NCBI GenBank assembly: GCA_965207445.1
Contig: CBDBLX010000002.1
Coordinates: 1,399,849 to 1,463,848, forward strand
DNA length: 64,000 nt
DNA from: Nitrosopumilus sp.
Lineage (GTDB): Archaea > Thermoproteota > Nitrososphaeria > Nitrososphaerales > Nitrosopumilaceae
Direction of reading: 5' to 3'
The notes under the pieces were generated by a model. The model did no database searches. It worked only from the letters and a program-made list of their open reading frames with translations, and was not told the origin of the DNA. How positions within the stretch are numbered: position 1 is the first letter of the stretch; each line of letters opens with the position of its first letter. Made by a program: the position numbers and the translations under genes. Below are positions 1-4,051 of the stretch, in pieces.

Positions 1-699
1 GCGAATACTCATCAGTCCATCTATGTATTGTAGATGGGTTTACAATGATCTCATCCATTGCAAACTGCACACATACTTTTTCTGGAGACATTTTGGTTGC
101 CATTATGGTGGACAGCTCACTTGCTATTACGAATGCATCAAAATACCACCACCCCCTCCTTGAACCCTTCCATGCTAGAGAATGTAGGGCCACATTTGTG
201 GCACTGTATCGCATTACAGATCTTTTTCTCTTGCACTTGCGCTCTCCCCATCCTACCACATCTTTGGATCTGCATTTTGGATACTGACATCTCAATTTTT
301 TGCGCTTAATCTGTATCCTTTTTCTACGCCCGCACCACCACTCTTTGTCTAAGAGCTTGTATACGAGCCCCCCACCATCACACATGCTTGCATATCTTTT
401 TTCCACCTGCACTGGACTAACACTGATATCTCATTCCAAGTGAACTAAGAGACACCGCATACAATAGACCTTGCACAGTTTGCTATACGACTGTCCATTT
501 AATCGAGCTCAGTGTAGTTATAGCACCTGCAATGCATGCAATCTGAATGCCTGCCCCTCCTAATTGCATCAATCTGAGCATTGGAGCATCTCTGCTTGCC
601 AGACTTTGGGTTGTCATTTTCTACTATGTTTTTGATCTTGGTTGGGTAGTTTCGTCTACCACCTTTTCTTCCTGAACTATTTTTTGTTTCATTATACAT
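1..699 (-). pseudogene. Frameshifted transposase remnant (Zn-ribbon + HTH, IS1/IS6-like archaeal DDE type), runs off the window start
   Basis: Stitched minus-strand frames read RKCKRKRSVMRY / CHKCGPTFSSMEGFK / FDAFVIASELSTIM..SPEKVCVQF..IVNPSTIHRWTDEYS, i.e. a CxxC ribbon followed by an HTH; several frameshifts and stops. Confidence 0.55.
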
Positions 700-781
700 A
701 TATCACCAATTGGACATATAAGCATGTGTGTGCGTAATCCGATGTCAGTGACGTTATAACGTTGTACTGAGAACAACAAAC

Positions 782-955
782 ATGACTAAATGGGCTACCA
801 ATGCCACGGAATTCCAAGTATCCATAACCCACAATGTGAAAAGGGGTACTAGTTACTCGTACATTCCAAAGCCGGTCCTTGCCAAACTTGGTAACCCGGA
901 GGGTTTGAAGTTTATCATACGTGGCGACAAAATACTAGTTACGTGTCCGGATTGA
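782..955 (+). CDS. Small AbrB/MazE-like protein (57 aa), not in the ORF track
   Basis: ATG782-TGA955: MTKWATNATEFQVSITHNVKRGTSYSYIPKPVLAKLGNPEGLKFIIRGDKILVTCPD; a decayed paralogue lies near 39460-39580. Confidence 0.65.
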   Translation: MTKWATNATEFQVSITHNVKRGTSYSYIPKPVLAKLGNPEGLKFIIRGDKILVTCPD

Positions 956-1016
956 CTGCAACGGTTCAAATCTGTATTAATTGCCACCAACCGCGTTTGC
1001 AGGAGAATCTATATCT

Positions 1017-1240
1017 ATGTTGGTGCTTAATAAAGAATCTCTGATTTTTGTGTGTTTTTTGGATGTTTGTGCATAGCATACGCTAGGGGGGTTGTTTTCC
1101 AGAGGATAAAGCGGACATGTATCTATGCGGGCATCGGTTCCCAGTATCATTCTTCATCCATTCATCAAGATCTCTATGCAATTAATTTCTCGGGCATCGG
1201 TTCCCATATATACTACGCACAATTCCTTGACCATAATTTT
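1017..1240 (-). ncRNA. Putative IS110 bridge/seek RNA in the downstream non-coding end
   Basis: Identical 16-mer CGGGCATCGGTTCCCA at 1128-1143 and 1191-1206; the adjacent 8-mer TATCTATG (1120-1127) equals the element-end sequence 1012-1019. Confidence 0.5.
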
Positions 1241-2467
1241 TCACTCTTTTTTTCTTGGTAGTCTTTGTTTTGCCATTTTGGTCGTGCTCTTTTTTCCCTC
1301 TTCTACACACGCCCAAAAACCAATATCTTTTTTCAACATCCAAAATACAATCCTGACCATCTTGGCAGCCGCTGCAACTTTTGCCTTTGAGCCTCCACGT
1401 TTTTGTACCAGTCGTTCGTAAAATGTACTGATTGGAGTCACTTTATTGCTTCTTTTTGCCCACGTGACGTGCGTGAGTGCTGCCTCTGATAACAAATGTC
1501 GTACAGTTGAATTGCCTTCTTTTGTAATACGTCCATGCTTTATGGTTTCTGCAGAGTTTCTCACAGATGGTACGATTCCAAAGTATGCTGCGAGTTTGTC
1601 TGGATTGGGAAATCTGGATATATCATCAATTGCAGATGCTAGTGCAAGAGCCGTGACGTTTCCAATACCGGGGCATGTTTTGAGCAAATCTGCCATATGA
1701 TACCTGTCTACCTCTTTTTTCATACGGGTGTTACAGTCTGCAATATCCTCATCAAGGTTGAAAATTGTTCTCAAATACATCTCAATTCGCCAGTCATCAA
1801 GGCCGTGTAGTCTGCTTACAAATGCATTTGAAAAGGGCGCTGCCTTGATCTTGATTCCCTCTTGTAGCAGTATGCCATGTATGAGATTTTTGTACCGTGT
1901 CCTACTCTGAACTATTGCACTCCTGCATCTGACAAGGTGTTTTACTTTGATTATATCATCTCCTGGTACGTGACTTGCTACAATGTAACCTCCACGCAAA
2001 AGGTCTGCTAGTATTAATGCATCTACCTTGTCAGTCTTCTTTTTTGATGTTGCAATCACCTTTGTTGATCTGGGATTGGATAAGATTACATCCAGATTTA
2101 ATTTCTCCTTGAGAAATTTGTACATCCCATACCATACAGAGGATGATTCAATCACATACTTTGCACCGTCTGGAAATTTGGCAAACTTTTTTTCCACAAC
2201 CTTGTAATCACATTCTATCTTTTCATTTTCTAAAACTGTTCCATCAGATTGCATGATAGCAACCTGCATGAATTTTTTGTGAAGATCAATTCCGACAAAA
2301 TACTCTTCAGGTGTCTTTGTCGATTTCTTTTTCTTCTTTTTCGTCACAGGGCTTGTAACTGTCTTCATATGTACACTTTTTTTACCCCTAATCTGTTTGT
2401 TTGCATTTTTGGCTTTGTTATGGTTGGCATCATCTAACCTACTAGATCTGTGTTTCTTTTTTTCCAC
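1241..2467 (-). CDS. IS110-family transposase/recombinase, apparently intact
   Basis: DEDD RuvC-like motifs FVGIDLHKK, VIESS, KTDKVDA; C-terminal PGIG...AAYFGIVPSVRNSA...KEGN; Lys-rich N-terminal extension. Confidence 0.95.
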   Translation of the reverse strand: MEKKKHRSSRLDDANHNKAKNANKQIRGKKSVHMKTVTSPVTKKKKKKSTKTPEEYFVGIDLHKKFMQVAIMQSDGTVLENEKIECDYKVVEKKFAKFPDGAKYVIESSSVWYGMYKFLKEKLNLDVILSNPRSTKVIATSKKKTDKVDALILADLLRGGYIVASHVPGDDIIKVKHLVRCRSAIVQSRTRYKNLIHGILLQEGIKIKAAPFSNAFVSRLHGLDDWRIEMYLRTIFNLDEDIADCNTRMKKEVDRYHMADLLKTCPGIGNVTALALASAIDDISRFPNPDKLAAYFGIVPSVRNSAETIKHGRITKEGNSTVRHLLSEAALTHVTWAKRSNKVTPISTFYERLVQKRGGSKAKVAAAAKMVRIVFWMLKKDIGFWACVEEGKKSTTKMAKQRLPRKKE

Positions 2468-2488
2468 ATATGATTAATTCCCAGTCAT

Positions 2489-4051
2489 GTGATTGCAAAG
2501 TATGTTTTTAAACCCATACTACAAGTCACGTTCATGATACAGTCCATAAACACCGTCTTTGAAAGATGTACGGCCACTAGTGCAATATATCTGCCTTCAG
2601 CAGGTACCCTCGCTTACTTGGATGGACATCCATTTTTGGCATGGTGTATGTGTCATGCTGCTGAAGAAGAAAAACAAGAGGCAAGGCCTGACAGTGTACG
2701 AGAGATACTCGCAGAGGCCGGCATAAAGCACGAAGCTGCTGTGGTACGGAATGATTACGGTGAGGCCGCCGTGGTGCCAATCACTTATGATACACCTGAA
2801 AAAGGATTCAAGTTGTTATTAGAAGCAGCTTTTGATGGTATTGACGTAATATCACAGGTGCCGCTTATGTATAGCCCGTGTGGGTTTTATGGCATACCGG
2901 ACATACTTGAAAGACACGATAATGAACCTAGCGCATTTGGGGACTGGCATTATGTGGTAAAGGAGATAAAGTCTGCAAAAAAATTCAAGGATACTCATTA
3001 TCTACAGGCCGCCTATTATACGCGGGCACTCGGACTCATACAAGAATACATGCCACCGAACTTCCTCTTGACAGATGGCACAGGTGAGACACACAAGATA
3101 CCATTTACAAAATACGAGAAATTACTTGATGAAGTGATATCAAGATATATGGTCATTAGAGATGGCTCCGTAAAGCCGGCCGCTACATATGGACAGTGCA
3201 ATAATACCGAGTGGGAGGATTACTGCAACAGGCTTGCAGTCGAAGCCGGCGACATCTCATTGTTGTCAGGTGTTGGTGATGGCGCGTTGCGGGGCTTGAT
3301 GATAAACGCGGGTGTTACAACGATAACTGATGTCTCAACAAAAAGTACATCAGAGTTATGTGATATACGTGGAATAGGATCTAAAAAGGCCGCCTCATTA
3401 AAGGCGCATGCCCAAGCCATCATATCAAATAAAGTAGTTTATAAGGATAAACCCTTACAGTTCCCTCAGGCCGATAATGTGGCATATCTTGACTTTGAAG
3501 GTTTTTTCCCGGCAATGATGCCGCTTGAAATGAAAGACGGTACTAAAATAATAGAACCCATTTGGATGATCGGGATGGTCATAGAGGACGAATTCAAATA
3601 CTATTTTGCAGGCGACCCATACGGCAATACCGTGGAAAAACCCGTCCAAAATATGATGGATATATTTCTAAATGATCTCCCCGAAAACAGCATAATTTAC
3701 CACTGGGGTAATTATGACCGCGCGTCTATGAAGCGCCTCTTGCAGGAGTATAGGTCTGACAGACTTGATGTCCTTGATTCTATACATGACATGCGTAAGA
3801 TCATAACTGCATCGTATGCACTACCTACTTACAGCAATGGTATCAAAGAGGTATCAAAATGGTGTGGTTTTGACTTTGCTTTCAAGCATCCTGACGCTGA
3901 CGCAGGCAATGTAAACACAGTATGGATGGGACTGATGGATGGCTCCATTAAGGATGTTGATACGGCGCTCGGTCCCATACTAGAGTATAATGAGGCCGAC
4001 TGCAGGATGCTCGAATGTGTGCATGAGAAATTTAAAAATATGAAAGAGTGA
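2489..4051 (+). CDS. TM0106-family RecB-like nuclease (PD-(D/E)XK + HhH + RNase H-like domain); native 5' end interrupted by IS110
   Basis: GIPDILER..VKEIKSAK..HYLQAAYY; HhH IRGIGSKKA; YLDFEG, YHWGNYD, YSNGIKEV, YNEADC. Confidence 0.85.
   Translation: MIAKYVFKPILQVTFMIQSINTVFERCTATSAIYLPSAGTLAYLDGHPFLAWCMCHAAEEEKQEARPDSVREILAEAGIKHEAAVVRNDYGEAAVVPITYDTPEKGFKLLLEAAFDGIDVISQVPLMYSPCGFYGIPDILERHDNEPSAFGDWHYVVKEIKSAKKFKDTHYLQAAYYTRALGLIQEYMPPNFLLTDGTGETHKIPFTKYEKLLDEVISRYMVIRDGSVKPAATYGQCNNTEWEDYCNRLAVEAGDISLLSGVGDGALRGLMINAGVTTITDVSTKSTSELCDIRGIGSKKAASLKAHAQAIISNKVVYKDKPLQFPQADNVAYLDFEGFFPAMMPLEMKDGTKIIEPIWMIGMVIEDEFKYYFAGDPYGNTVEKPVQNMMDIFLNDLPENSIIYHWGNYDRASMKRLLQEYRSDRLDVLDSIHDMRKIITASYALPTYSNGIKEVSKWCGFDFAFKHPDADAGNVNTVWMGLMDGSIKDVDTALGPILEYNEADCRMLECVHEKFKNMKE

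Follow-up and report, generated by a model that had tools for sequence, protein, structure and literature searches.

A probable bridge RNA with target- and donor-binding loops downstream of an IS110-family recombinase in Nitrosopumilus

Described relatives and the recombinase

The systems most similar to the locus analysed in this work belong to the IS110 family. In the papers on IS621 (Durrant 2024, PMC11208160; Hiraizumi 2024, PMC11208158), a recombinase with DEDD and Ser catalytic residues is described together with an RNA made up of two pseudo-symmetric modules, each comprising a stem, a guide, a stem-loop and a second guide; target guides of ~9 nt and 4-5 nt, handshake dinucleotides, a promoter at the junction of the joined ends and a 2-nt core, in which one base varies and the other does not, complete the description. 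All these traits recur here, the junction promoter as a prediction. The account of the IS1111 group and its seekRNAs (ISEc11, ISKpn4, ISPa11; Siddiquee 2024, PMC11187229) contains further likenesses: a long downstream non-coding region and a short left end, a top-strand complement that precedes the bottom-strand match, sub-terminal inverted repeats, and the use of other mobile elements or repeats as targets. Finally, TIGR-Tas, as presented in PMC12045711, uses a comparable unit of a guide, a loop repeat starting with UG and a second guide, and the same paper describes bridge RNAs as a fusion of two TIGR-type units. According to PMC11208160, bridge RNAs are predicted in 85.7% of the IS110 and 93.0% of the IS1111 entries.

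The window, that is, the whole stretch of 64,000 nucleotides of Nitrosopumilus sp. DNA that was analysed, carries on the minus strand, at 1012..2476, what is very probably an IS110-family insertion sequence with an IS1111-like layout, having a very short left end and a guide RNA behind the gene. Unlike the RNA of IS621 as described in those papers, the one predicted here follows the gene and reads its substrates on the strand opposite to it; the core is TA, whereas that of IS621 is CT; the junction promoter would be of the archaeal TATA type instead of the sigma-70 type; and the protein is only distantly similar (E ~1.6e-7). With respect to the published IS1111 elements, the inverted repeat is 5-7 bp long with the start codon inside it (the IS1111 range being 7-17 bp), and the donor loop is simple, whereas many IS1111 RNAs contain multi-loops. 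The differences from TIGR-Tas concern the presence of two units only, without an array, and of a transposase instead of Tas, the match to NF052498 staying below its cut-off. Judging from these comparisons, the element is one that would work like IS621 with an IS1111-like layout.

The recombinase gene (1241..2467, minus strand) is an uninterrupted ORF of 408 codons from a GTG. Its product combines an N-terminal DEDD RuvC-like domain and a C-terminal Tnp domain with the catalytic Ser (PF01548 and PF02371), and scores 224 bits against NF033542 (cut-off 140) and 34.7 bits, below the cut-off of 100, against NF052498. The residues D61, E107, D146, D149 and S305 align with D11, E60, D102, D105 and S241 of IS621 and are invariant in 56 homologues; ISCro4 and IS621 are the only solved relatives (E ~1e-7). 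The recombinase is thus intact, as an earlier, sequence-only reading of this DNA had suggested, and the attribute "thaumarchaeal" that it used is reasonable, since the closest homologues belong to Nitrosopumilaceae/Nitrosopumilus. The protein carries a Lys-rich N-terminal extension (2368-2467) of 19-82 codons across homologues, whose frame is kept and in which short motifs recur.

Structure and guides of the predicted RNA

The core of the predicted RNA was located at 1104..1236 (minus strand) by folding and by the alignment of homologues. In unconstrained folding the minus-strand RNA of 1096-1236 takes a two-loop form. The putative target-binding module (1164..1231) is closed by the outer helices 1231-1225/1170-1164 and 1219-1216/1180-1177, with changes on both sides at 5/7 and 3/4 pairs, respectively, and surrounds a central hairpin at 1191..1206; the putative donor-binding module (1104..1159), the most conserved part of the downstream region, is closed by the helix 1159-1155/1108-1104 around a central hairpin at 1128..1143. 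The homologue set, for the most part from Nitrosopumilaceae, was derived from 163 loci, 147 of which gave matches reaching the C-terminus, for a total of 124 distinct downstream regions. A strict two-loop parse was passed by 94 of these; among the 30 that failed are seven distant elements (<35% identity), regions with longer hairpins, one deletion and contigs that are truncated. From 26 of the 28 family representatives (two short ones were left out), RNAalifold recovered the same helices as in the window, with 23 pairs, 14 of which show two-sided changes. Hence, the outer stem that the sequence-only reading had placed around each motif is present in both the unconstrained fold and the alignment, and the covariation among homologues that it had named as a check is observed. 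Paired cells amount to 95.8%, vs 86.2% in shuffled alignments (0/500 shuffles) and 30-44% in slid controls, a comparison that is biased in favour of the structure, which derives from the same alignment. Moreover, G-U pairs are retained on the strand of the gene, and a variable stem position of the target-loop hairpin forms a Watson-Crick pair in 28/28 families. Rfam gave no match over 900-2700 at E values up to 5. A heptamer resembling box C at ~1170-1164 was dropped because homologues do not conserve it.

The two central hairpins coincide with a pair of identical 16-mers, at 1128-1143 and 1191-1206; the sequence-only reading was right on both their identity and their 63-nt spacing, and 300 doublet shuffles of this 224-nt end gave no exact repeat longer than 10 nt. 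Twin identity as a rule of the family was rejected: the hairpins are identical in 5/28 families, and stable unlike hairpins occur in the L083 clade. Their sequence varies freely between families, and the distance between hairpins is 2.89 edits within an element vs 5.26 across elements (0/20000), an effect mostly at the clade level. On a protein tree of 26 rows (two frameshifted rows excluded), the within-clade test of the twins gave 296/40320 for an 8-member clade, weakening to 292/5040 without the window element and giving no signal without both families of this genome (290/720); outside that clade no signal of concerted evolution was found (44 vs 44.2; 13342/20000). We regard the evidence for a homogenisation of the twin hairpins as no more than suggestive, and the derived loop letters common to both local families as a hint of episodic hairpin copying. 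The 16-mers would act as a scaffold and not as guides, the same protein binding them in both dimers, and it is this binding of both modules by one protein that might account for the shared box letters. In TIGR-Tas, according to PMC12045711, the box motifs covary within a locus and are bound by one symmetric protein.

Each loop appears to contain two guides. In the donor loop, the 5' guide (1146..1150) is complementary to the left end of the element (2474-2470), and the 3' guide, with the core TA and a handshake dinucleotide (1118..1127), equals the right end; in particular, the 8-mer following the second motif (1127-1120) is identical to the right end plus core (1019-1012), so that the donor guide had been picked correctly from the sequence. 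Across homologues the 3' donor guide is identical to the right end in 33/33 distinct cases, which comprise three sequence variants, and the 5' donor guide is the exact complement of the first five left-end bases in 16/30 cases, with a mismatch, mostly a single one, in the other 14; moreover, this guide and the left end differ in concert between the two IS110 families of this genome.

In the target loop, the 9-nt 5' guide (1207..1215) is complementary to the core and the right flank, while the 6-nt 3' guide, followed by the core TA and the handshake AT (1181..1190), matches the left flank. The target guides follow the flanks across the family, in both halves beyond permutation, which is the outcome of a further check named in the sequence-only reading. 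Left flanks match the 3' target guide at 3.47/5 positions vs 1.36 when permuted (31 guides, 57 flanks; 0/20000), the matches by position being 54, 45, 38, 35 and 22 of 57, and 2/23 at the sixth. Right flanks match the 5' target guide at 5.13/7 vs 3.14 (38 guides, 83 flanks; 0/5000), the permutations using the same best-of-three registers and chimeric copies being kept in; the register varies (0 in 21 cases, +1 in 26, +2 in 11 and +3 in one), and 24 of the 83 right flanks match at less than 5/7 in any register. As for the two bases after the core, which are the handshake positions in PMC11208158, those of loop 1 equal the first two bases of the element in 28/35 cases, with little variation, and in the family of the window element both have changed from AC to AT; the handshake of the donor loop tracks the target (0.97 vs 0.61; 1/20000 permutations). 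All these permutation counts overstate independence, the homologues being related, above all for the donor guide with its few variants.

The covariation of the structure, together with that of the guides with the flanks beyond permutation, supports the reading of 1104-1236 as a bridge RNA with a target-binding and a donor-binding loop downstream of an IS110 recombinase, an interpretation in which we place high confidence. The donor/target-loop RNA proposed from the sequence alone is therefore retained in part: a two-loop RNA is predicted and the donor guide stands, whereas the target assignment does not, and each loop holds two guides instead of one.

Two other readings of the same data can be considered. 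According to the first, only the target module would work, as a short processed RNA of the seekRNA type, the donor module being dispensable or confined to a precursor. IS1111-type elements with 70-100-nt RNAs carrying target matches have indeed been reported in PMC11187229, and the size of either module in our locus is compatible with such a product; however, the conservation of the donor module, the covariation of guides with both element ends and the donor handshake that tracks the target make this reading improbable. Even less credit can be given to the second, in which the twin motifs would be binding sites at the DNA level, or else the product of a small neutral duplication, with end matches that are due to chance or are relics. 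This would agree with the folding stability of the whole 224 nt, which is not unusual (z-score -0.66), but not with the compensatory pairs and the G-U pairs that the strand of the gene retains, with guides changing with the flanks over 31-38 guide variants, or with a motif sequence that is free to vary between families; guide-flank and structural covariation largely refute it.

Ends, copies and targets

The same genome harbors a frameshifted second copy of the IS110 element, a truncated third one and a 39-bp scrap, as well as a sister IS110 family with two copies (57% protein identity). All copies part ways at TA 2476-2475 and TA 1013-1012, so that the 1465 bp of the window copy include both TA cores, one of them belonging to the target. 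The left end (2465..2476) comprises the core TA (2476-2475), the donor arm (2474-2470) and an inverted repeat arm (2470-2466) that overlaps the GTG start (2467-2465), the gap between core and GTG being 7 nt; the right end (1012..1020) comprises the core TA (1013-1012) and the other arm (1020-1016), and 227 nt of non-coding DNA lie behind the stop codon. The sub-terminal inverted repeat is perfect over 5 bp in the window copy and over 7 bp in the sister family. For the latter, ten exact empty sites, each with one TA, were found in the genome, vs 0.36 expected, and they prove its TA-bounded ends. As in other IS110 elements, terminal inverted repeats are absent, both junctions contain a short core, and the empty site (sister family, G377) has a single core. 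The window copy shows TA at both junctions and no target duplication, with host DNA representing the left target half at 2477..2482 and the original right target half reduced to two bases. A 520-codon ORF with an RNase_H_2 match and a weak helix-hairpin-helix match (2489-4051) adjoins the left end.

The empty sites of the sister family sit in repeats at the ends of an IS481-like element (G000:C2:664326-665652 and five further copies; best match NF033577, below cut-off), which are the target of that family and are interrupted in 2/6 copies. An orphan bridge RNA in decay and scraps of the ends, all of the sister family and lacking a recombinase gene, occur at G000:C2:1572299-1572494 (minus strand), 601104-601165, 944011-944184 and ~350134, and a repeat of ~81 bp occurs at G000:C2:1572531-1572611 and at well over 100 other sites of the genome. 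In other homologous loci (L132, L133, L112, L113 and L117), IS110 elements of two families are arranged in tandem or nested, the right end of one running into the left end of the other.

On the right, the window copy borders an IS6-like element (1..1009; 1.9 kb, starting before the window), which lies outside the IS110 element, is multi-copy in the genome and replaced all but two bases of the right target half. The window copy of this element is broken and without a target duplication, and contains a 57-codon ORF (782-955) without a Pfam match; the broken fragment gave no Pfam or NCBIfam match, and another copy matches PF13610 at 28.5 bits (cut-off 27). Among the 45 IS6-like ends listed, none has the lost right target half beside it.

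The sequence-only reading had drawn different boundaries, with an element reaching ~2590, a 7-bp core and a target guide reading 1003-1011; such a geometry finds its 7-bp string at 1010-1016 and 2586-2592 and a 7/9 match that is numerically right, but it retains practically no probability in view of the divergence of all other copies at 2476, the read depth back at the single-copy level beyond ~2486 and the identity of 1003-1009 as the end of the IS6-like repeat. The left end near 2590 is wrong because the copies diverge at 2476 and the empty sites of the sister family hold one TA; 2586-2592 is therefore a 7-bp look-alike, the core is TA (1012-1013, 2475-2476), and the circle junction that had been predicted from the former (CCAACAT-AGATATA-TTGCAC) falls with it. 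Similarly, the target match at 1003-1011 lies on the other strand and mostly within the terminal repeat of the IS6-like element ending at 1009; the neighbour of the first motif has its match instead in the left flank plus core (2482-2475). Among contigs assembled from four runs of one sample no end-joining contig was found, and such contigs cannot show that a circle is absent.

With the TA-bounded ends, the target of the window element can be approached from its own flanks. The left flank matches the guide at 4/6 positions (2482-2477), which is modest, and on the right the 5' target guide fits the four surviving bases (1013-1010); the right flank of the second copy matches at 5/9 only. A dispersed 21-nt motif, A/T-rich and partly palindromic, occurs at G000:C2:1547371 and at eight more sites (nine copies, against none or one in each of three Markov genomes), and the 5' target guide of the window copy matches 8/9 of its bases. 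The flanks and this guide point to the motif as the likely target. The attribution goes no further than likely because the guide-predicted 14-mer, rejected as a pointer in its own right, is not discriminating: it has 82 genomic sites within two substitutions vs 50-55 in Markov genomes, three of the 82 being the motif.

At the left junction the dinucleotide is TA in 78/78 sites, and at the right one, over 90 sites, it is TA in 75, TG in 10 and TT in 5. In genome G377 (L231-L260), where a repeat end represents the IS110 target, 178 matches to it are empty; most of them fall into two spacings, which agree with the TG and TT junctions of that genome. In G397 (L264-L309) many copies combine a near-identical scaffold with many different target guides.

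Proposed mechanism, possible remodelling and significance

What comparison among homologues establishes is the predicted fold with its four guides, the ends and core of the element, and the catalytic residues of the recombinase. On this basis, and by analogy with IS621, we propose the following scenario. Each RNA would consist of two similar modules (outer stem, guide, central hairpin, guide), the first base-pairing with the two target strands and the second with those of the joined ends, around a TA core. A recombinase tetramer would cut immediately 3' of the core, on the strand that runs antiparallel to the gene, with handshake pairs aiding the strand swap. A cut at this position might explain why the left junction is always TA and the right one keeps the core of the target; we infer that this asymmetry, in which one base varies and the other stays fixed, fits the chemistry of IS621.

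Circularisation would also bring a TATA-like box of the right end (1027..1034, minus strand) to a position 30 nt before the GTG of the left end, yielding a leaderless transcript of gene and RNA. In 58 right ends, positions -21..-14 from the core are occupied by a T/A-rich box, behind a purine tract, and in 52/55 homologous left ends a GTG lies in frame and reads through without a stop to the catalytic Asp, over an intervening length of 19-82 codons. In the host, TATA-like motifs peak at -29 before the start codons of 1035 long ORFs (18, 31 and 20 at -30, -29 and -28). These data suggest that the joined ends form a circle-junction promoter of the archaeal type; junction promoters are already known for the IS110 family, and leaderless GUG transcripts occur in archaea according to PMC4983044. 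A scan for sigma-70 promoters and terminators gave nothing above chance.

Several homologous copies have an irregular structure. Six loci of the relative genome G099 (L184, L188, L190, L192, L194 and L196) lack a transposase match; these copies have a normal right end and start at three different internal TAs in the DNA coding for the RNA. L184 keeps the whole target loop, with a 5' target guide complementary to its own flank at 9/9 positions, while in L194 host DNA occupies the position of the 5' guide. Given the short strings shared at the joints, slippage may have contributed to the G099 copies. Internal deletions at short shared strings are seen in L293 (G475), with the left end joined into the donor guide, and in L060, with the outer stem joined into hairpin 1; the right end of L099 carries a 110-nt tandem duplication, from the right-end core back to a TA just after hairpin 2.

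A more speculative extension, to which we assign a small though not trivial chance, is that this clade remodels its own guide gene, through hairpin copying, RNA-only copies and flank-derived guides, all driven from an archaeal TATA-type circle promoter. The recombinase (or conversion) might act on the guide DNA because the latter mimics the junctions. In this scenario, the recombinase, or conversion between the modules spaced by 63 nt, would overwrite one central hairpin with the sequence of the other, whence the perfect lineage-specific twins of both local families; mobile RNA-only copies starting from internal TAs would supply new guides in trans; and the exchange of flanking host DNA into the guide position would represent a natural route of reprogramming. 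Precedents for the G099 copies can be found in ISPpu9/Ssr9, for which PMC12288879 describes transposase-less RNA modules mobilised in trans, and in half-match recombination, for which a donor-arm match suffices as described in bioRxiv 10.64898/2026.08.31.748434; unlike the cases in these accounts, the G099 copies begin at several internal TAs inside the DNA coding for the RNA.

Archaeal IS110s were already known (bioRxiv 10.1101/2024.06.21.599552), and the window element is most likely a new archaeal member of the known bridge-RNA recombinases. The available text of PMC13343696 mentions IS110 a single time, and a literature search brought up, among its listed matches, none that deals with a bridge RNA of Nitrosopumilaceae; as stated in bioRxiv 10.64898/2026.10.21.760802, 181,180 IS110-adjacent sequences have been clustered, and the family of the window element may be included in those clusters. 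Work is under way to turn bridge recombinases into tools for programmable DNA insertion, and the ones that the papers cited here characterise are bacterial. This archaeal system is fully mapped, with a TA core and a compact, simple two-loop RNA (~135 nt, predicted), and its natural guides, which come in dozens of variants along with the corresponding targets, make tolerated mismatches and one-base register shifts visible. A promoter rebuilt at the circle junction would, as a prediction, serve archaeal TBP/TFB transcription. If the self-targeting reading were true, it would also bear on how such guides are reprogrammed in nature.
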